This document shows positions 37,394 to 59,147 of a DNA stretch of 64,000 nt, one piece after another. Numbering within the stretch: the first letter of the stretch is position 1; every line of letters begins with the position of its first letter. The DNA is taken from the NCBI RefSeq assembly GCF_002854065.1, contig NZ_CP024147.1; one strand, 5' to 3'. Both the position numbers and the translations under genes were made by a program. The DNA is from Escherichia coli. Lineage in GTDB: Bacteria; Pseudomonadota; Gammaproteobacteria; Enterobacterales; Enterobacteriaceae. The notes beneath the pieces are model-generated. The model saw only the letters and a program-made list of their open reading frames with translations, was not told the origin of the DNA and made no database searches.

Positions 37394-37747
37394 ATGATGT
37401 CGCTTACTTCCCTACAACTCTTTAAGAATCTGTCTGATGAAACACGTCTGGGTATTGTTCTCATACTCAGAACTATGGGGGAGTTGTGCGTATGTGATCT
37501 TTGCACTGCACTTGATCAATCACAGCCTAAGATCTCCCGGCATCTGGCTATGTTGCGAGAAAGTGGGATTTTGCTTGATAGTAAACACGGTAAATGGGTT
37601 CATTACCGGTTATCCCCACACATTCCTTCATGGGCTGCACAGATTATTGAGCAGGCCTGGTTAAGCCAACAGGACGATCTTCAGGCCATCGCCCGTAAAC
37701 TGGCTTCAGTCAACTGCACTAACAGCAGTAAGGCTATTTGTATTTAA
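37394..37747 (+). CDS. arsR: arsenite-responsive repressor ArsR
   Basis: HTH plus As(III)-binding ELCVCDLC motif. Confidence 0.9.
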   Translation: MMSLTSLQLFKNLSDETRLGIVLILRTMGELCVCDLCTALDQSQPKISRHLAMLRESGILLDSKHGKWVHYRLSPHIPSWAAQIIEQAWLSQQDDLQAIARKLASVNCTNSSKAICI

Positions 37748-37787
37748 AAATTTGCCTGAATATATATGATTTCCCACATATGAGGTA

Positions 37788-38156
37788 TTGAGAATGAAAA
37801 CGCTAGCGGTATTCGACCCGGCAATGTGTTGTAGCACCGGTGTCTGCGGTACTGATGTCGATCAGGCTCTGGTTGATTTTTCCGCGGATGTGCAATGGCT
37901 GAAACAACGAGGTGTTCAGGTAGATCGTTTCAATCTGGCACAGCAACCGATGAGCTTTGTCCAGAACGAGAAAGTTAAAGCATTTATTGAGGCTTCTGGT
38001 GCGGAAGGGCTGCCATTACTGTTACTGGATGGCGAAACAGTGATGGCCGGGCGTTATCCGAAACGGGCTGAACTTGCACGGTGGTTTGGAATTCCGCTGG
38101 AGAAAGTAGGATTAGCGCCTTCAGGCTGCTGCGGTGGTAATACTTCTTGTTGTTAA
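37788..38156 (+). CDS. arsD: arsenic metallochaperone/regulator ArsD
   Basis: N-terminal MCCSTGVCG (Cys12/13/18) and C-terminal CCGGNTSCC. Confidence 0.9.
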   Translation: MRMKTLAVFDPAMCCSTGVCGTDVDQALVDFSADVQWLKQRGVQVDRFNLAQQPMSFVQNEKVKAFIEASGAEGLPLLLLDGETVMAGRYPKRAELARWFGIPLEKVGLAPSGCCGGNTSCC

Positions 38157-38173
38157 GTATGTCAGGAGGACAT

Positions 38174-39925
38174 ATGAAATTCTTACAGAACATCCCCCCT
38201 TATCTGTTTTTTACTGGTAAAGGAGGCGTTGGTAAAACCTCTATTTCCTGCGCCACGGCGATCCGTCTGGCAGAACAGGGTAAACGAGTGCTGCTGGTCA
38301 GTACCGATCCGGCCTCAAACGTAGGCCAGGTCTTTGGCCAGGTTATTGGCAATACTATTCAGCCAATAGCCACTGTTCCTGGATTGTCGGCACTTGAGAT
38401 TGATCCTCAGGCCGCTGCGCAACAGTACCGGGCCAGAATCGTTGACCCTATTAAAGGTGTCCTGCCTGATGACGTCGTTAGCAGCATCAACGAACAACTG
38501 TCTGGTGCATGCACAACAGAGATTGCGGCTTTTGATGAGTTTACCGGATTACTGACAGACGCCTCTTTGCTGACCCAGTTTGACCATATCATCTTTGATA
38601 CCGCGCCAACCGGCCATACTATTCGCCTTCTCCAGTTGCCAGGCGCCTGGAGCAGCTTTATTGACAGCAATCCCGAGGGCGCATCCTGCCTCGGCCCGAT
38701 GGCGGGGCTGGAAAAACAGCGTGAACAGTATGCCCATGCCGTTGAAGCACTGTCCGACCCAGCGCGTACCCGCCTGGTTTTAGTTGCCAGACTGCAAAAA
38801 TCCACCCTGCAAGAAGTCGCCCGAACTCATTTAGAACTCGCCGCAATTGGCCTTAAAAATCAGTACTTGGTCATTAATGGCGTTCTGCCCAAAACTGAAG
38901 CGGCAAACGATACACTGGCTGCGGCTATATGGGACCGTGAACAGGAGGCGCTGGCCAATCTTCCTTCTGACCTTTCCGGTCTGCCAACTGACACGTTATT
39001 CCTCCAACCACTCAATATGGTCGGCGTGGCTGCATTAAGTGGGCTTCTCTCCTCTCAGCCTGAGGCAGCATCATCTTCTGAAGAATACATTCAGCAACGA
39101 CCTGAAATTCCGTCGCTCTCAGCGTTAGTCGATGATATTGCCCGTAACGAACATGGTCTGATAATGCTAATGGGCAAAGGCGGTGTGGGGAAAACCACGA
39201 TGGCGGCAGCCATTGCCGTCAGACTGGCCGAAATGGGATTTGATGTCCATCTGACCACCTCAGATCCAGCAGCACACCTCAGCACAACCCTGAACGGTAG
39301 CCTTAACAATCTGCAGGTCAGTAGAATCGATCCTCACGAGGAAACAGAACGCTATCGTCAGCATGTTCTTGATACCAAGGGTGGAGAACTGGATGAAGCG
39401 GGTAAACGCCTGCTGGAAGAAGATTTACGCTCTCCTTGTACCGAAGAGATTGCGGTCTTCCAGGCCTTTTCACGGGTGATTCGTGAAGCGGGTAAGCGCT
39501 TCGTGGTCATGGATACGGCACCCACCGGGCATACCCTACTGCTGCTGGATGCCACCGGGGCGTATCACCGCGAAATTGCTAAGAAAATGGGCGATAAAGG
39601 CCATTTCACCACGCCAATGATGCAGCTTCAGGACCCGGAGCGAACCAAAGTGTTACTGGTCACGCTGCCGGAAACCACGCCCGTGCTTGAGGCGGCAAAT
39701 TTGCAGGCCGACCTTGAACGCGCAGGGATTCATCCCTGGGGCTGGATTATCAATAACAGCCTTTCCATTGCGGATACCCGTTCGCCGCTGCTTCGTCTGC
39801 GGGCGCAACAGGAACTTCCGCAGATCGAGAGTGTTAAACTCCAGCATGCCAGTCGCGTAGCTCTTGTTCCTGTACTGGCGTCAGAACCGACCGGCATCGA
39901 CAAACTCAAACAACTCGCTGGTTAA
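38174..39925 (+). CDS. arsA: arsenite pump ATPase ArsA
   Basis: Start [23 protein letters not shown]; duplicated P-loops (GKGGVGKTS / GKGGVGKTT) and DTAPTGH motifs. Confidence 0.9.
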
Positions 39926-39972
39926 TTATTGTCATTACTCGGGGCAGCTTTGCTGCCCTTTCGGGAGGTTAT

Positions 39973-41262
39973 ATGTTACTGGCAGGAGCCATTTTTATCC
40001 TGACCATCGTGTTGGTTATCTGGCAGCCAAAGGGATTAGGCATTGGCTGGAGCGCCACGCTGGGTGCCGTACTGGCTCTGGCATCGGGTGTGATTCATAT
40101 CGCCGATATTCCGGTGGTGTGGAATATCGTCTGGAACGCCACGGCCACCTTTATTGCCGTCATTATCATCAGTCTGTTGCTGGATGAGTCCGGCTTTTTT
40201 GAATGGGCTGCACTGCACGTTTCCCGCTGGGGCAATGGGCGTGGACGTCTGCTATTTACCTATATTGTTCTGCTCGGCGCGGCGGTGGCGGCATTGTTTG
40301 CCAACGATGGCGCGGCGTTAATTCTGACGCCGATCGTTATCGCCATGCTACTGGCGCTGGGATTCAGTAAAAGCACCACGCTGGCTTTCGTGATGGCCGC
40401 AGGGTTTATTGCCGATACCGCCAGCTTGCCACTTATCGTATCGAACCTGGTCAATATCGTTTCGGCTGATTTCTTCAAACTGGGATTCACGGAGTATGCG
40501 TCAGTTATGGTGCCGGTGGATATTGCCGCCATTGTCGCCACGCTGGTGATGCTGCATCTTTTTTTCCGCAAAGATATCCCGCCCACTTATGAGCTGGCGC
40601 GACTGAAAGAACCCGCAAAAGCCATCAAAGATCCTGCGACGTTCAGAACCGGCTGGGTTGTGCTCCTCCTTCTGCTGGTCGGTTTTTTTGTCCTTGAGCC
40701 GATGGGGATCCCTGTGAGTGCGATTGCGGCAGTGGGGGCGGCAATCCTGTTTGCGGTGGCCAAAAAAGGTCATGGTATTAACACCGGTAAAGTGCTGCGC
40801 GGCGCGCCCTGGCAGATCGTGATCTTCTCACTGGGGATGTATCTGGTGGTATACGGGTTGCGTAACGCCGGTCTGACGGATTATCTCTCTGACGTGCTGA
40901 ACGTACTGGCAGATAAAGGACTGTGGGCCGCGACGCTGGGGACAGGATTCCTGACTGCATTCCTCTCTTCTATCATGAACAATATGCCGACCGTACTGGT
41001 TGGCGCACTGTCGATTGATGGCAGCACCGCGACCGGCGTTATCAAAGAAGCGATGATTTATGCCAACGTCATTGGCTGCGATCTGGGGCCGAAAATCACC
41101 CCTATTGGTAGCCTGGCGACACTGCTCTGGCTGCACGTGCTTTCACAGAAGAATATGACAATCTCGTGGGGATACTACTTCCGCACCGGGATTATCATGA
41201 CCCTGCCTGTGCTGTTTGTAACGCTGGCTGCGCTGGCGCTACGTCTCTCTGTCACTTTGTAA
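39973..41262 (+). CDS. arsB: arsenite efflux permease ArsB
   Basis: 429-aa polytopic membrane protein between arsA and arsC. Confidence 0.9.
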
Positions 41263-41274
41263 TGAGATTCTGAT

Positions 41275-41700
41275 ATGAGCAACATCACTATTTATCACAA
41301 CCCAGCCTGCGGCACCTCGCGTAATACGCTGGAGATGATCCGCAACAGCGGTACCGAGCCGACCATTATTCTTTACCTTGAGAACCCACCTTCGAGGGAT
41401 GAATTGGTCAAACTCATTGCCGATATGGGTATTTCAGTACGAGCGCTGCTGCGTAAAAACGTTGAGCCTTACGAGCAACTGGGTCTTGCAGAAGATAAAT
41501 TTACTGACGATCAGCTCATCGACTTTATGTTGCAACACCCAATTCTGATTAACCGTCCGATCGTGGTTACGCCGCTGGGAACCAGACTGTGCCGTCCTTC
41601 TGAAGTGGTTCTGGATATCCTGCAGGATGCGCAGAAAGGGGCTTTCGCTAAGGAAGACGGTGAAAAGGTCGTTGATGAAGCAGGAAAACGGCTGAAATAA
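41275..41700 (+). CDS. arsC: arsenate reductase ArsC (glutaredoxin-coupled type)
   Basis: 141 aa, catalytic HNPACGTSRN motif. Confidence 0.9.
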   Translation: MSNITIYHNPACGTSRNTLEMIRNSGTEPTIILYLENPPSRDELVKLIADMGISVRALLRKNVEPYEQLGLAEDKFTDDQLIDFMLQHPILINRPIVVTPLGTRLCRPSEVVLDILQDAQKGAFAKEDGEKVVDEAGKRLK

Positions 41701-50756: not shown

Positions 50757-52472
50757 TAAAATCCCTCAATCCAGACTCGGCCATGAAATACTACTGGAGG
50801 TTACAGATGGTGGAAATCGTTCTAAAACACTAGATTTCAATCGCTACAACTATTTATACTTCCCCACTCGAAATAAAATAAATAGAGGTCACAGTACATT
50901 TCAAGATAGATCAGTCAGCGCTGAATCGTTATATGTAGCATTCAGAGATTCAGACTACTCATCAGCCACAAAATATTATCTTTTTGAATACCTCAGGCAA
51001 TATATTGTATTTTGCGACAAGTGTCACCATCCCATTTTCACTAATGAATCCGTGCAGGCCTACTGTGATCTCCTTATTTATAAAAATAAATCAGGAATTA
51101 TTTTGAATAGTACTTATACTGCTATCATTAGTGCCACAAAACGCTTATTCGTTATGCTTGACTTACCTGGGCGGTGGTTTGATGAATTACCAACCTTAGG
51201 AAAGTCACAGGCACAGCCCTATAAGGCCTATAGTGACAATGATTTAAAAAAACTACTCCCTTTACTGAGGATATTTTTCAAGCAAATTTCCAATAAGTTC
51301 CTACAAGACCCCGCTTTGTATCTTTCTCAAGGTAAGAATGAAACTGATATGTTTTTCAGGTGGAATGGTAAAATATATGCAGTATATGGTAGTGTCGGGC
51401 AACTAATGGCTTCTGCTGTATATCTACTGTCTTACTATACATGGGCAAACACAAATACATTACTTTCTCTTGAAAGACCAGACATATGTGAAAGTAATGT
51501 AAATGGAGAATGGTACCAAATGCCAGCATTTAAGCGCCGGGCATTTAGAGTCATCACTATTCAGATCGGTGCCCACGACCAGATCAACATTCCAAAGTAT
51601 TCAATGGAATTTTTCAACCAACTTCTAAAAGTCTCAAAAGCTATTTCAGTTGAAAGTAACTTACTTTTTCAGTCCGGTTCATGTAATCGCATCACCCCAT
51701 TATCAGCGGTCCACTTACAAAATTTCAACAGTTTTCTCAAAAAGAACTTTAGATTAACTGATGATAAAGGACTTAGCTATCACCTGTAATATCGAGATTT
51801 CGTGCTACTGGTAGTCAATTTACGCAATTGCATTACTCTCATACACATAGTGCATCGCTATTAGGAAATTCACCGAAAACAACTCGCAAGCATTATTCAG
51901 AAGGGAATGAATACCAAAATCAGTCAATGCTCCAGGACTCTGTCTCTGTTTTTGCAGACAAGGCGGTAAATGGCGGGAATATAGAGACGTCTAAAAAAAG
52001 AATAAAAAGTGAACTTAATGTTGAGATTTTAACATATGAAAGTATGCTTAAAATGAAATCTCCACCAATGCGACAGGCCCACGGCAGTTACTGTAAAGAT
52101 CCATTCGGGGAGCAGGCTAAAAAGTTCTTGCTACGCGCCCAACGTCACGATTTGCTTTCTACAGAAAAATTTGCTTGCTCAGATCTACTGATGTGTTTTT
52201 CCTGTCCTCATCAAGTTGTGATAGCTGAACCTACTGATATTTGGTGTTTGCTGAGTTTTAAAGAATGCATAGAAGAGAGTATTTACAAGCATGTCAATCA
52301 CACTCATTTCCATAATAACTATGACTCTGTGTTGTCGGCAATTGAAAAAATTTTAATGAGTATTGATAAAAAAATACTTTCAAGTGCAACTCAAAAATTT
52401 CTCGATGAGGGTCCTCACCCTTTATGGAGAGACCAGTCATTTCTATATCCATATAGCAATAAGGATACATGA
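50749..52472 (+). pseudogene. tyrosine recombinase (second of trio) interrupted by a frameshift within the catalytic region
   Basis: ORF 50749-51789 ends ...DDKGLSYHL-stop; the overlapping frame continues ...LSPVISRFRATGSQFTQLHYSHTHSASLLGNSPKTTRKHY, carrying the box II and Tyr motifs; frames overlap only in 51777-51789. Confidence 0.6.
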
Positions 52473-54565: not shown

Positions 54566-55013
54566 AAAAGACAACACACTGCTACTGCTTGAGGCAGCTC
54601 TGGACCGTATTTTACGCGGTGAATCACAGAAAATAGCACCATCCCGAAAACTCAGTGTTCGGGCGGTTGAGGTAGAATCAGGACTCGGTAATGGTAGTGC
54701 ATATTACCACACTAAAATTATCGAAAAAATCAAACAAATAAAAAACTCTTCCATAACGACAGGAAGTTTAAATCATCAACATCGAAAATGGAAACAAAAA
54801 GCACTTAAGGCTGAAAAATTAAAAAACAAATTCCGGGATGAAAACATTGCATTAAAATTATTAAATTCACAAATTGCCGCAGATCAGTATAGACAAATGA
54901 GCACTTTAAGAGATGCCTTACAACGTATATTGGAACTCGAAAAAACAATTGAAGAATTGAACATTGAACTGGTTGAGACCAGACGTAAAAACATTACTCT
55001 ATTTAAGCAATAA
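54558..55013 (+). CDS. small coiled-coil hypothetical protein, possible recombination accessory factor
   Basis: 151-aa ORF, basic and coiled-coil rich, translationally coupled to the preceding ORF. Confidence 0.45.
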   Translation: MSKKDNTLLLLEAALDRILRGESQKIAPSRKLSVRAVEVESGLGNGSAYYHTKIIEKIKQIKNSSITTGSLNHQHRKWKQKALKAEKLKNKFRDENIALKLLNSQIAADQYRQMSTLRDALQRILELEKTIEELNIELVETRRKNITLFKQ

Positions 55014-55738
55014 CTCAGTTATAACACAATACGATTTACAATAGATAGTTTCGCGATGATAAGCATTACTGCGTACCGTGAATATCCTACGTTATACAGG
55101 GTTACGGGTAAAAACTATCGGGTCTGCGGTGAGACATGTCATTTTCATCGGTACATCCCCCGTTAAAGGGGAAATTATCTTTCCGGTCTTCATTTTCTTA
55201 ATAAAGTCCAATTTTTGCTCAGTGTCATCCTGGTATCTCTTTCATTTCTGATTATCCCACACAGAGGATTCAGCCAGAAAAGTACATTTTTCAGTTTCTA
55301 TCCCCTCACTCCGGCTCCTCCCCTTTCAACACTGATTTCGGGAAAACAAGCATGCGCCTAAAAAACAATCAAAACAGTCCGTATAAGTTACTTAGGTTGT
55401 CTGCTACTACAATCCCCTACCTTCTCAGTCAGTTGTTTATGGACTGACAGGAAGTAAAAAAGCCTATTAAAAAGAGCAAAAATAAGCAGCTAAACAAACA
55501 GGAAGCCTCTCAATCAAATGATAGTATTCCGAAATCAGCAGTTCAGCATGTAATAGGTACACGAGGGAGTTATGGTCTCTAATGAGTCGAGTTCACCAAG
55601 CACAAGAAGGATGGAAATTGCCGGACACCAAACTCTGGAAAAGTCCCATCCTGCCCAGAAGCCTTCCCCCACAAGGCTTTCCAGTTTTTCTACAGTTAAA
55701 TCGTGTATGGGTACTGCGTGACCATGCGTTAAATGTTA

Positions 55739-55769
55739 AAGGGCTAAGAGTAGTGTGCTCTTAGCCCTT
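55739..55769 (-). terminator. hairpin downstream of dinQ
   Basis: AAGGGCTAAGAG tagtgtg CTCTTAGCCCTT. Confidence 0.4.
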
Positions 55770-55785
55770 AATTACGTTTCCGCTA

Positions 55786-55869
55786 TCAGTTCAGAAGCTG
55801 AAGCAGAAAGCGGATCAGTTCCAGCAGCGCAATTAACGCCCCAAGAACGATGATTGCTTTATCAATCAC
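55786..55869 (-). CDS. dinQ: DinQ small membrane toxin (27-aa peptide; longer in-frame ATG at 55914)
   Basis: Minus-strand translation gives VIDKAIIVLGALIALLELIRFLLQLLN-stop from GTG 55869; below the size cutoff of the ORF track. Confidence 0.75.
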   Translation of the reverse strand: MIDKAIIVLGALIALLELIRFLLQLLN

Positions 55870-55929
55870 CCGTTTTCTCCATGCGATGGAGTGAGAATGC
55901 ATCCGCTTACTCATCCATTGCCTGTCACG

Positions 55930-56020
55930 GCGCATGCCCTATTGTTAGATAATGGCATTCTCACTCCGGCCAGAGCATCAGTTAACGGCACCACCCGTAC
56001 CACTGATCAGGACTTTGAAA
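55930..56020 (+). ncRNA. agrA: agrA-like antisense region overlapping the dinQ 5-prime leader (approximate bounds)
   Basis: 33-nt core GTTAGATAATGGCATTCTCACTCCGGCCAGAGC (55944-55976), repeated 199 bp downstream; part is reverse-complementary to the dinQ leader segment GGAGTGAGAATGC (55888-55900). Confidence 0.4.
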
Positions 56021-56062
56021 GCGTTTATGCGCATTGCCAGAGTGAAAATGCCTCAGAGCTAA

Positions 56063-56078
56063 CTGGATAATCATACAG
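56063..56078 (-). promoter_or_regulatory. candidate LexA box (CTGT-N8-CCAG) for dinQ
   Basis: Minus-strand CTGTATGATTATCCAG about 150 nt upstream of the longer dinQ start. Confidence 0.35.
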
Positions 56079-56129
56079 TATATTCAGGTTATAAAACCAG
56101 CATGTCCTTGCAATAGTTTCAGTATGGTA

Positions 56130-56227
56130 TTAGCATTGATGCGTTAGATGATGGCATTCTCACTCCAGCCAGAGCCACCAACTCAGGGCTGGAAAGTAAA
56201 AAAACCGACGCAAAGTCGGTTTTTTTA
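56130..56227 (+). ncRNA. agrB: agrB-like small RNA with intrinsic terminator (approximate bounds)
   Basis: Second copy of the 33-nt core (56143-56175, 31/33 identical) followed by ACCGAC gcaaa GTCGGT hairpin and T-run (56197-56227). Confidence 0.4.
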
Positions 56228-56334
56228 CGTCCTGATTCAGACCTCCTTTCAAATGAATAGCCAACTCAAAATTCACACCTATTACCTTCCTCTGCACATA
56301 CGCATTCGTTAAACCATATATGTTTTTGACTTAT

Positions 56335-56391
56335 CCGCTTTGGTTTGTAACGCTGGTGGCGCTGGCGCTACGTCTCTCTTTCACTTTGTAA
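56335..56391 (+). pseudogene. arsB: arsB 3-prime remnant (last about 17 codons)
   Basis: ...PLWFVTLVALALRLSFTL-stop closely matches the C-terminus of the intact island ArsB; no upstream arsB sequence present. Confidence 0.6.
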
Positions 56392-56403
56392 TGAGATAAT
56401 GAT

Positions 56404-56772
56404 ATGAGCAACATTACCATTTATCACAACCCGGCCTGCGGCACGTCGCGTAATACGCTGGAGATGATCCGCAACAGCGGCACAGAACCGACCATTATCC
56501 ATTATCTGGAAACTCCGCCAACGCGCGATGAACTGGTCAAACTCATTGCCGATATGGGGATTTCCGTACGCGCGCTGCTGCGTAAAAACGTCGAGCCGTA
56601 TGAGGAACTGGGTCTTGCAGAAGATAAATTTACTGACGATCGGTTAATTGATTTTATGCTGCAACATCCTATCCTGATTAACCGTCCGATTGTGGTGACG
56701 CCGCTGGGAACTCGCCTATGCCGCCCCTCGGAAGTGGTGCTGGAAATTCTGCCAGATGCGCAAAAAGGCGCG
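56404..56772 (+). pseudogene. arsC: arsC truncated at about codon 123 by IS1
   Basis: MSNITIYHNPACGTSRN... reads into the IS1 terminal repeat at 56773; differs from the island arsC at several residues. Confidence 0.8.
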
Positions 56773-56787
56773 GGTAATGACTCCAAC

Positions 56788-57291
56788 TTATTGATAGTGT
56801 TTTATGTTCAGATAATGCCCGATGACTTTGTCATGCAGCTCCACCGATTTTGAGAACGACAGCGACTTCCGTCCCAGCCGTGCCAGGTGCTGCCTCAGAT
56901 TCAGGTTATGCCGCTCAATTCGCTGCGTATATCGCTTGCTGATTACGTGCAGCTTTCCCTTCAGGCGGGATTCATACAGCGGCCAGCCATCCGTCATCCA
57001 TATCACCACGTCAAAGGGTGACAGCAGGCTCATAAGACGCCCCAGCGTCGCCATAGTGCGTTCACCGAATACGTGCGCAACAACCGTCTTCCGGAGCCTG
57101 TCATACGCGTAAAACAGCCAGCGCTGGCGCGATTTAGCCCCGACGTATCCCCACTGTTCGTCCATTTCCGCGCAGACGATGACGTCACTGCCCGGCTGTA
57201 TGCGCGAGGTTACCGACTGCGGCCTGAGTTTTTTAAATGGCGGAAAATCGTGTTGAGGCCAACGCCCATAATGCGGGCGGTTGCCCGGCAT
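56788..57291 (-). CDS. insB: IS1 InsB
   Basis: 167-aa ORF inside IS1. Confidence 0.85.
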
Positions 57292-57485
57292 CCAACGCCA
57301 TTCATGGCCATATCAATGATTTTCTGGTGCGTACCGGGTTGAGAAGCGGTGTAAGTGAACTGCAGTTGCCATGTTTTACGGCAGTGAGAGCAGAGATAGC
57401 GCTGATGTCCGGCAGTGCTTTTGCCGTTACGCACCACCCCGTCAGTAGCTGAACAGGAGGGACAGCTGATAGAAACAGAAGCCAC
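57210..57485 (-). CDS. insA: IS1 InsA
   Basis: 91-aa zinc-finger/[28 protein letters not shown]. Confidence 0.85.
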
Positions 57486-57554
57486 TGGAGCACCTCAAAA
57501 ACACCATCATACACTAAATCAGTAAGTTGGCAGCATCACCTTACCAGGGATACG

Positions 57555-58058
57555 ATGTTCTTCACCGCGATGAAAAACATTCTGAGTAAAGGTAATGTCG
57601 TTCATATACAGAACGAAGAAGAGATCGACGTAATGTTGCATCAGAATGCCTTCGTCATTATTGATACATTAATGAATAATGTATTTCATTCTAATTTTCT
57701 CACTCAAATCGAACGATTAAAACCTGTCCATGTCATTATTTTCTCCCCCTTTAATATTAAACGCTGCCTGGGGAAAGTGCCGGTGACCTTTGTTCCGCGG
57801 ACTATCACTATCATTGATTTTGTCGCACTCATCAATGGCAGTTACTGCTCCGTGCCTGAAGCGAATGTGTCACTTTCGCGCAAGCAACATCAGGTTCTGA
57901 GCTGCATTGCGAATCAAATGACAACGGAAGATATTCTGGAGAAACTGAAAATATCGCTAAAAACGTTCTACTGCCATAAACACAATATCATGATGATCCT
58001 CAATCTTAAGCGGATCAATGAGCTGGTACGCCATCAGCATATTGATTATCTGGTGTGA
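57555..58058 (+). CDS. dctR: LuxR-family regulator DctR (YhiF)-like, 5-prime end and promoter replaced by IS1
   Basis: C-terminal LuxR HTH; reading frame is open back into the IS1 end; first in-frame ATG at 57555. Confidence 0.6.
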   Translation: MFFTAMKNILSKGNVVHIQNEEEIDVMLHQNAFVIIDTLMNNVFHSNFLTQIERLKPVHVIIFSPFNIKRCLGKVPVTFVPRTITIIDFVALINGSYCSVPEANVSLSRKQHQVLSCIANQMTTEDILEKLKISLKTFYCHKHNIMMILNLKRINELVRHQHIDYLV

Positions 58059-58118
58059 ACGATTGATCAATATAAAGAGGCCCAGCAATAAATAGCCAGA
58101 CCTCCCGTTAATTATACG

Positions 58119-59147
58119 TTATGCAGCAACGCCTTCCGGTATCAGCGAAGCAATTTGCTTACGCCATTGCGCTTGCTCCTGTTCGCCTTCTGTACGTTGA
58201 CCATAAAGTTGCGCTATCTGCGTACCATCATGGGCAAACAATTCCAGACTGGTTACGTAGCCATCGCTGGTCGGTTTACGGGTAACCCAGGCTTCAGCAA
58301 TGCTCTCTTCTAATAGATGAAGAGTAAACGTCGGGTTGAAAATATTCAGCCAACCTTTCATTGGCACCACTTTTTCTACCACACCAGTGAAAATCTGTAC
58401 GCAGCCACGGTTGCCAACAAACACCATGATTTCATTACCATCCTGCTGTGCAGATTCAAGAATTTGCGCCAACGCACTGTTGGATACTTTGCAGGCCAAA
58501 TCGTCTGCCACCAGATTGAACGCCTGTTGGCGCGTCAGATTGTGGCGCTTTAGCAACGTAAAAAACTGATGAACGTCGGTCATCGCCCGCCACTCTTGCT
58601 CGACCACAGTGGCATCGGCTCGCGTTTGAACAACTGGCGCATCAACGGCTTTTAACTCAAGCGGCATATTCTCATCGGTGATAAACCGTGCCAGAAGCTC
58701 ACTCCATGCCGCCATATCGGTATTGTCGGTGGCATAAACTTTTAGTAATGCATCACCCTGATGATCAAAGAACTGAATACTCTGGCGTTCGCCACGAGCC
58801 GTGTTTTCTTTGATGTGGAAAACACTGGCCCATTGATTGAGAAACAGACGTAAATCCAGCGCGCGCGGATTGAGGATCAATCCGGCATGTCCGTTCAAAT
58901 GCTGGTTTGTGAACGTACCAACTTGCTCATGGACTGCATATTCATTACGACAAATACATTTGGTTTCGCCAACACTTTCGAGCGCCGCCAGAATTTCACG
59001 GATATCGCCGTGCATCCGCCACGCATCGTGCGTGACGCGTGCAAATGCCAGTTCTGCTTCTCTAATATTCATTAACCCTGCGATGTCACGCGCGTACTTT
59101 CCGGGATTTTGTTCTTTTAACTCAAGCCAGCGTGTGTAGTGGTTCAT
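58119..59147 (-). CDS. chuS: heme utilisation/degradation protein ChuS
   Basis: 342-aa ORF immediately downstream of chuA. Confidence 0.8.
   Translation of the reverse strand: MNHYTRWLELKEQNPGKYARDIAGLMNIREAELAFARVTHDAWRMHGDIREILAALESVGETKCICRNEYAVHEQVGTFTNQHLNGHAGLILNPRALDLRLFLNQWASVFHIKENTARGERQSIQFFDHQGDALLKVYATDNTDMAAWSELLARFITDENMPLELKAVDAPVVQTRADATVVEQEWRAMTDVHQFFTLLKRHNLTRQQAFNLVADDLACKVSNSALAQILESAQQDGNEIMVFVGNRGCVQIFTGVVEKVVPMKGWLNIFNPTFTLHLLEESIAEAWVTRKPTSDGYVTSLELFAHDGTQIAQLYGQRTEGEQEQAQWRKQIASLIPEGVAA

Follow-up and report, generated by a model that had tools for sequence, protein, structure and literature searches.

Probable stepwise deletion on both sides of one IS1 copy at the relic ars locus of an Escherichia coli clone

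The stretch of Escherichia coli DNA analysed here (64,000 nucleotides of contig NZ_CP024147.1, assembly GCF_002854065.1; henceforth the window) carries the remains of the native ars locus, in which a 3'-truncated arsC is joined by one complete IS1 element to a dctR gene without its 5' end. Comparison with closely related genomes led us to propose, as the probable history, that IS1 inserted into the spacer between yhiS and slp and that adjacent deletions then removed DNA on both sides of it, all of this on top of an old loss of arsR and arsB. On the same comparison, IS1 would not originally have inserted into arsC or into dctR. The process is ordinary, well-understood genome decay, neither surprising nor new in kind, and its components are known: IS1, IS-adjacent deletion, the arsC-only allele of phylogroup B2, the R773-type arsRDABC operon and the slp-dctR operon followed by the chu genes.

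IS1 and its junctions in the window and in three close relatives

The element is exactly 768 base pairs (bp) long and lies on the minus strand at positions 56773..57540, starting with GGTAATGACTCC and ending with GGCAGCATCACC. Its terminal inverted repeats, GGTAATGACTCCAACTTATTGAT and GGTGATGCTGCCAACTTACTGAT, agree at 18 of 23 positions, and the A6C motif for the -1 frameshift is intact (TTTAAAAAAC is present). It contains insA (57210-57485, minus strand, 91 amino acids) and the insB' frame (56788-57291, minus strand, 167 amino acids), and it is complete and of the IS1B type, being 100% identical to the IS1B copies of strains CUWW06 and 100416, where this identical copy has the annotation IS1B transposase with programmed frameshift. 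Of the two ends of the element, the right inverted repeat (IRR) adjoins arsC and the left one (IRL), which holds the insA promoter, adjoins dctR; the match to that promoter (57533-57506, minus strand) is directed away from dctR.

The 9-bp flanks of this IS1 are unlike each other, AAAGGCGCG on one side and TTACCAGGG on the other, and their comparison gave no target-site duplication. Three genomes that are about 99.9% identical to the window in the flanks and contain the same genomic island, namely 100416, the NCTC strain GCA_900449015.1 and CUWW06, were compared with it, and the end points were mapped on Combat11I9 (L005; the L numbers designate the records compared), a related genome that lacks both this IS1 and the island. 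In 100416 (GCF_052907965.1), a stool isolate from the Gambia (L016), the same IS1 is found as a simple insertion in the same orientation within the yhiS-slp spacer, bordered on the left and on the right (L005 11423) by the perfect 9-bp duplication CAGAATATA; nothing is missing, and arsC, the yhiS pseudogene, slp and dctR are all present. Since the identical IS1 has its 9-bp duplication in 100416, the missing duplication in the window is secondary.

The other three genomes depart from this state to a growing extent. The NCTC strain (L006) still has IS1 followed by CAGAATATA at L005 11423 on the right, whereas its left junction joins arsC nucleotide 369 to IS1, with 1,890 bp lost leftward (the yhiS pseudogene and the arsC 3' end). 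It therefore pairs the left junction of the window with the right junction of 100416. The window has the same left junction and a right junction between IS1 and dctR nucleotide 14 (L005 12422), a further 999 bp being lost rightward, which brings the total to 2,889 bp. In CUWW06 (L001), again with arsC nucleotide 369 on the left, IS1 meets dctR nucleotide 94 (L005 12502), so that another 80 bp are missing and the total is 2,969 bp. Neighbouring states in this series of four genomes differ by one junction only, and one boundary of every deletion coincides exactly with an end of IS1. Private single-nucleotide polymorphisms (SNPs) number seven in 100416 and zero to four in the three deletion-bearing genomes, and their patterns would place 100416 outside those three.

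The segment missing from the window relative to Combat11I9 (L005 9533-12421) comprises the last 57 nucleotides of arsC, a frameshifted yhiS pseudogene, slp, the slp-dctR spacer and 13 nucleotides of dctR; the corresponding segment of K-12 is L003 5106-9196. It is AT-rich, with 37% GC overall and 30% GC in the yhiS-slp spacer. The original prediction, made from the letters of the window, had tied IS1 to a deletion rather than to a simple insertion and had named the lost part from K-12 gene order as the arsC 3' end, yhiS and slp; the unlike flanks, which re-inspection left without any duplication, the junction series of the relatives and the mapped 2,889 bp bear this out. It had also rightly seen IS1 abutting both arsC and dctR, with element limits that were off by one to two bases. 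The base G at 56772 belongs to arsC, because 100416 reads GGCGCG/TTCTCC at that point.

A sequence of events can be proposed from these junctions for the more recent layer of change, which would have taken place within one clone. IS1 would first have entered the AT-rich yhiS-slp spacer, generating the normal 9-bp duplication. From the IRR end, 1,890 bp with the yhiS pseudogene and arsC codons 124-141 would then have been deleted leftward, and afterwards, from the IRL end, 999 bp with slp, the slp-dctR spacer and 13 nucleotides of dctR would have been deleted rightward, giving the state of the window; the sister strain CUWW06 would have lost 80 bp more on the right. Intramolecular IS1 transposition appears to be the likeliest mechanism, one end of the element attacking a nearby target, so that the IS and one junction would be retained, the intervening DNA lost and no duplication left. 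IS-adjacent deletions that leave no target duplication, and that often begin small and grow over time, have been described in the long-term evolution experiment (PMC11708052), and the series looks like a textbook case of adjacent deletion through intramolecular transposition of an IS.

Weighing the alternatives

Several points weigh against this history. The order of events rests on four genomes and very few SNPs, and the deletions of the window and of CUWW06 could be independent of each other, each arising from an NCTC-like state. The IS1 of the NCTC strain has a T to C change at IS1 position 764, in the left inverted repeat; because of this substitution, together with assembly indel errors, that strain is to be taken as a sister and not as the literal ancestor. 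The exact junction of IS1 with dctR was found in one piece in no other complete E. coli genome, and the exact junction of arsC with IS1 recurs among the complete genomes only in CUWW06. The seven records that cover at least 80% of the right-junction query are IS1 insertions near dctR. Lastly, deletion by the transposase and RecA-dependent recombination between direct IS1 copies leave identical products at the level of sequence.

The last point leads to an unlikely alternative, in which homologous recombination between pairs of directly oriented IS1 copies made the deletions. Extra IS1 copies would have been present at arsC nucleotide 369, at dctR nucleotide 13 and, for CUWW06, at dctR nucleotide 93, and each would have recombined with the resident copy. 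The product is the same as that of an adjacent deletion, one IS1 with unlike flanks, and the NCTC structure, whose left junction comes from one site and whose right junction comes from another, is what such an exchange would leave. IS1 is active and abundant in the clone (at least 40 IS1 matches in CUWW06, further insertions in 100416 and in the draft contig L012), other lineages (R8, NR1442) have independent insertions in the same interval, and recombination between IS copies is listed as a frequent cause of missing target duplications (PMC11708052). Against this, three extra insertions in the same orientation and three recombinations are needed where three intramolecular events suffice, and an intermediate with two copies was seen in no genome or contig examined. 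The IS1 copies are all identical, so that there is no mosaic signature to speak for either model. Parsimony favours transposition.

Much less probable is a single step, in which IS1 inserted into arsC or dctR and one IS1-mediated deletion then reached the other gene. The window alone, with one IS1 and unlike flanks, is compatible with it, and a single deletion had been implied by the original prediction. However, within the very segment that such a deletion should have removed, 100416 has the identical IS1 bordered by a perfect 9-bp duplication, and the NCTC strain pairs the right junction of 100416 with the left junction of the window; a single step would require these coincidences to have arisen independently, whereas 100416, the NCTC strain and CUWW06 point to an insertion followed by separate leftward and rightward deletions. 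An assembly artefact, that is, a misjoin over a collapsed IS1 repeat that faked the adjacency of arsC, IS1 and dctR, can hardly be credited: IS1 is a multicopy repeat and its junction with dctR nucleotide 14 is found in no other complete genome, but the left junction occurs independently in two finished genomes and about 18 contigs, finished relatives show the same architecture with nearby end points, and an IS1 end at dctR nucleotide 14 demands a real event there whatever lies on the other side. In no complete E. coli genome does arsC adjoin dctR without IS1, an arrangement that had been named beforehand as one that would refute the original prediction.

The older arsR-arsB deletion and the truncated arsC

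The remainder of the locus was described from the sequence of positions 55600-59000 and the open reading frames (ORFs) listed for it. The left edge of the relic ars locus is formed by a gene for an AgrB-type antisense small RNA (sRNA) with its terminator, present as a single copy at 56144..56228 on the plus strand (Rfam RF02891, 103 bits; aligned to K-12 agrA and agrB). A short non-coding stretch separates it from the tail of arsB: on the plus strand, positions 56229..56342 are a remnant of the arsR upstream region that aligns to the K-12 locus up to L003 2990, 38 nucleotides before the arsR start, and that retains the ars -35 box TTGACT (56326-56331). The deletion starts just after this box. 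Relative to K-12 it corresponds to L003 2991-4676, about 1.69 kb with arsR and 1,241 of the 1,290 nucleotides of arsB, and its junction lies at 56340/56343 with two nucleotides of uncertain origin in between. What is left of arsB is a stub of 49 nucleotides (56343..56391, plus strand; L003 4677-4725 at the K-12 arsB 3' end), that is, 15 codons and the stop rather than the roughly 17 codons estimated before. New sequence stands in place of the ars -10 element, and the deletion also gave rise to a 23-codon ORF (MFLTYPLWFVTLVALALRLSFTL, followed by a stop) that reaches from the former promoter into what is left of arsB (56320-56391).

Of 5426 complete E. coli genomes, 1111 gave a single uninterrupted match to a 221-bp query spanning this junction; where arsRBC is intact, the two halves of the query match 1.7 kb away from each other, and the search tool does not merge such matches. 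In Combat11I9, without the island and without this IS1, the queried junction is 100% identical to that of the window. The breakpoint sequence CCGCTT-TG-GTTTGTAACG recurs in strain R8, where the flanking DNA shows only about 91% identity to the window; this argues for a single event, inherited or passed on by recombination, and not for a lesion particular to the strain of the window. For phylogroup B2 the loss of arsRB is on record, isolates of that group having arsC alone between gor and slp (Sutterlin et al., 2018; PMC5923176). To judge from these comparisons, the deletion is old, shared between lineages and the same allele as that typical of phylogroup B2. As the older layer of change, the 1.69-kb deletion would have taken arsR and all but 49 nucleotides of arsB and left arsC behind half of the ars promoter.

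On the plus strand, arsC follows at 56404..56772 with 369 nucleotides, or 123 of 141 codons, in agreement with the original prediction, which had also noted that the frame reads straight into IS1. It continues for 26 codons within the element to a stop at 56853, and the same 149-amino-acid fusion product is encoded on 18 public contigs. The relic protein equals K-12 ArsC at 123 of 123 residues, matches NCBIfam NF007456 over positions 1-123 of 141 and fully covers the TIGR00014 core model, its last 18 residues being replaced by the 26 encoded by IS1. The residues that we take to be catalytic in R773 ArsC, Cys12 and Arg60, Arg94 and Arg107, fall inside the retained residues 1-123, and the ArsC-IS1 fusion, with all of them present, may conceivably still be active, though we hold this to be doubtful. 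In RefSeq the fusion of CUWW06 (WP_248790368.1; L001 8704-9153) is named as a normal glutaredoxin-dependent arsenate reductase and not flagged as a pseudogene; this minor misannotation is now found in several assemblies.

Within positions 56240-56772 of the window, arsC itself is 95.1% identical to K-12, 94.6% to Combat11I9 and 92.1% to R8, and it appears to be mosaic and more diverged than is usual for a core locus of E. coli. Since the 221-bp junction region is 100% identical to Combat11I9 and arsC only 94.6%, recombination within the gene is suggested.

A second arsC lies in the genomic island, at 41275-41700. The island protein equals R773 ArsC (PDB 1I9D) at 140 of 141 residues, and the island operon arsRDABC (37394-41700) shares 99% identity with its counterparts on plasmids of Citrobacter and Salmonella. 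Relic and island ArsC differ at 7 of 123 residues, with 85.6% nucleotide identity, in line with the several differences reported before, and the two genes are by their sequences of independent origin. The native ArsC, truncated as it is, has presumably been made redundant by the arsRDABC of the island. It is unlikely, in spite of these two origins, that the strain once had two independent ars systems, as had been supposed. The deletion is present without the island in Combat11I9, and in 100416 it occurs together with the island and an intact arsC. On grounds of parsimony, arsC was thus probably the only gene left at the native locus before the island was acquired. The statement that arsR and most of arsB are deleted stands, whereas a relic peculiar to this strain is not what the 1111 genomes indicate. 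With arsR absent, arsB reduced to 49 nucleotides and arsC to 123 of 141 codons, the native locus is no functional arsRBC operon.

As to the island itself, it measures about 26 kb (29639-55716), is integrated in the 3' end of gor and carries tyrosine-recombinase-like genes next to arsRDABC. An imperfect direct repeat of 10 bp (CGTTACCATG / CGTGACCATG) borders the island, which alters the C-terminus of the gor product from ...VTMR to ...VTMRG, each followed by the stop. Its right boundary is common to only two of the 5426 complete E. coli genomes, 100416 and CUWW06. The ST69 lineage, which is known to carry arsRDABC (PMC5923176), was considered for the window, but with this boundary in so few complete genomes the window was not assigned to a lineage. 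Between island and relic locus lies the toxin gene dinQ (55786-55869, minus strand). One agr copy (Rfam AgrB) is present in the window (55930-56230) against two in K-12 (agrA and agrB); in R8 even the single copy is apparently gone, to judge by BLAST coordinates, and two metagenome contigs of the clone of the window (L009 and L011) apparently have two. The copy number seems to vary through recombination between the repeats of about 118 bp beside dinQ.

The dctR remnant, significance and comparison with known systems

On the right of IS1, dctR (yhiF) occupies 57541..58058 on the plus strand, window position 57541 being nucleotide 14 of the K-12 gene, to which it is 99.2% identical from there on; the 5' truncation described before is thus one of 13 nucleotides. 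Also missing are the Shine-Dalgarno sequence (AGGAG), the annotated start and the upstream slp promoter, while an ORF of 167 amino acids remains from Met10 (57555). Beyond dctR, chuS and chuA follow on the minus strand. In intact genomes slp and dctR are co-transcribed as one operon from the YdeO-activated slp promoter (PMC4222967). With slp and the promoter deleted and dctR beginning at nucleotide 14, this operon no longer exists in the window, and dctR would be cut off both from the slp promoter, controlled by YdeO and GadE, and from its own ribosome-binding site. The gene is probably silent, since the slp promoter and the ribosome-binding site are lost and the transposase transcription of IS1 points away from it.

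Read-out from IS1, which had been raised as a possible source of dctR expression, is also unlikely for the reason that the transposase genes and the IRL promoter face the other way. Hybrid promoters formed with an IS1 end are known in principle (Prentki et al., 1986, as cited in PMC9330008). A scan against the promoter consensus for expression of dctR from IS1 gave one sole outward candidate, at 57527..57556 on the plus strand, with TTGGCA in IRL, an 18-nucleotide spacer and TACGAT in dctR, matching at 9 of 12 positions; six sites of this quality occur in the region as against 3.7 ± 1.7 in shuffled sequences, so that such matches are not more frequent than in the shuffles. Its -10 element overlaps the Met10 ATG, the only upstream in-frame start codon, and any transcript from it would therefore be without a leader and a Shine-Dalgarno sequence.

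The 167-amino-acid DctR was considered as a marker of the right junction and proved uninformative, as gene callers give the Met10 start at an intact slp-dctR too (507 collection blocks). The start of dctR is inconsistent across databases, with the 167-amino-acid Met10 form of the gene callers on one side and a 176-amino-acid form with a strong AGGAG in RefSeq and K-12 on the other.

Further IS1 copies were noted in and around the interval. In R8 (L002 8002-8769), direct reading of the sequence shows a simple IS1 insertion flanked by the 9-bp duplication CGTACCAGG shortly before the dctR start; NR1442 (L004 7453-8220) has an IS1 between arsC and yhiS; 100416 (L016 5201-5968) carries an additional IS1 within the island, at a site corresponding to about position 52270 of the window; and in the draft contig L012 an IS1 end is joined to window position 54910. 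By the look of these sequences IS1 is clearly active in the clone, and the AT-rich interval from arsC to dctR appears to have been hit repeatedly. The repeated erosion together with the independent insertions (the R8 group and NR1442; AH21 and C21 by feature annotation) may conceivably reflect selection to inactivate or rewire slp-dctR in host-adapted clones, a reading that we hold to be quite doubtful. If true, part of the acid fitness island would have been lost through pathoadaptation and not through neutral decay.

Beyond annotation and strain biology the findings have little import. The gene called arsC in these genomes is a truncated fusion with IS1, and dctR is here a promoter-less remnant, while arsenic resistance rests entirely on the acquired arsRDABC island. 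Since Slp is missing, the clone may have an altered tolerance to organic-acid metabolites at low pH. The reported roles of DctR include fitness under acid and metabolite stress, repression of the locus of enterocyte effacement (LEE) in enterohemorrhagic E. coli (EHEC) and regulation of the E. coli type III secretion system 2 (ETT2) in avian pathogenic E. coli (APEC) (PMC8259166). A phenotype resulting from the change in dctR is possible. The four-genome series offers a tidy natural case of stepwise deletions on both sides of one IS1, which could be of use in teaching or as a sub-typing marker of the clone.

Among known systems, the K-12 arsRBC locus has the same chromosomal position (gor-dinQ-agr on one side, yhiS-slp-dctR on the other), and the remaining ArsC residues are identical to those of the window, which, unlike K-12, is without arsR, retains only 49 nucleotides of arsB, lacks 18 codons of arsC and so has no working operon. 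The B2-type arsC-only locus (PMC5923176) has the identical breakpoint, at which the ars promoter meets the final 49 nucleotides of arsB, the same gor-dinQ-arsC synteny and the chu genes downstream. In that locus, however, arsC is intact, whereas the window arsC is also cut at codon 123 by IS1 and the genome has additionally acquired the arsRDABC island. With the slp-dctR part of the acid fitness island the window shares the dctR coding sequence from nucleotide 14 and the position beside chuS found in other chu-positive E. coli, but slp, the YdeO-dependent promoter, the ribosome-binding site of dctR and its first 13 nucleotides are gone. IS1 hybrid promoters are resembled in the outward -35-like TTGGCA in the terminus and the -10-like TACGAT in the flank, though the match in the window is no better than in shuffled sequence. 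A further parallel is IS-mediated adjacent deletion, in which the IS is kept, the deletion begins at its terminus, one junction is old and the other new, no duplication is left and the end points are nested and extend progressively, as with IS150 in the long-term evolution experiment (PMC11708052). No mechanistic difference from the known adjacent deletions is apparent; what distinguishes the present case is that the series is found in natural isolates of one clone and on both sides of one copy.

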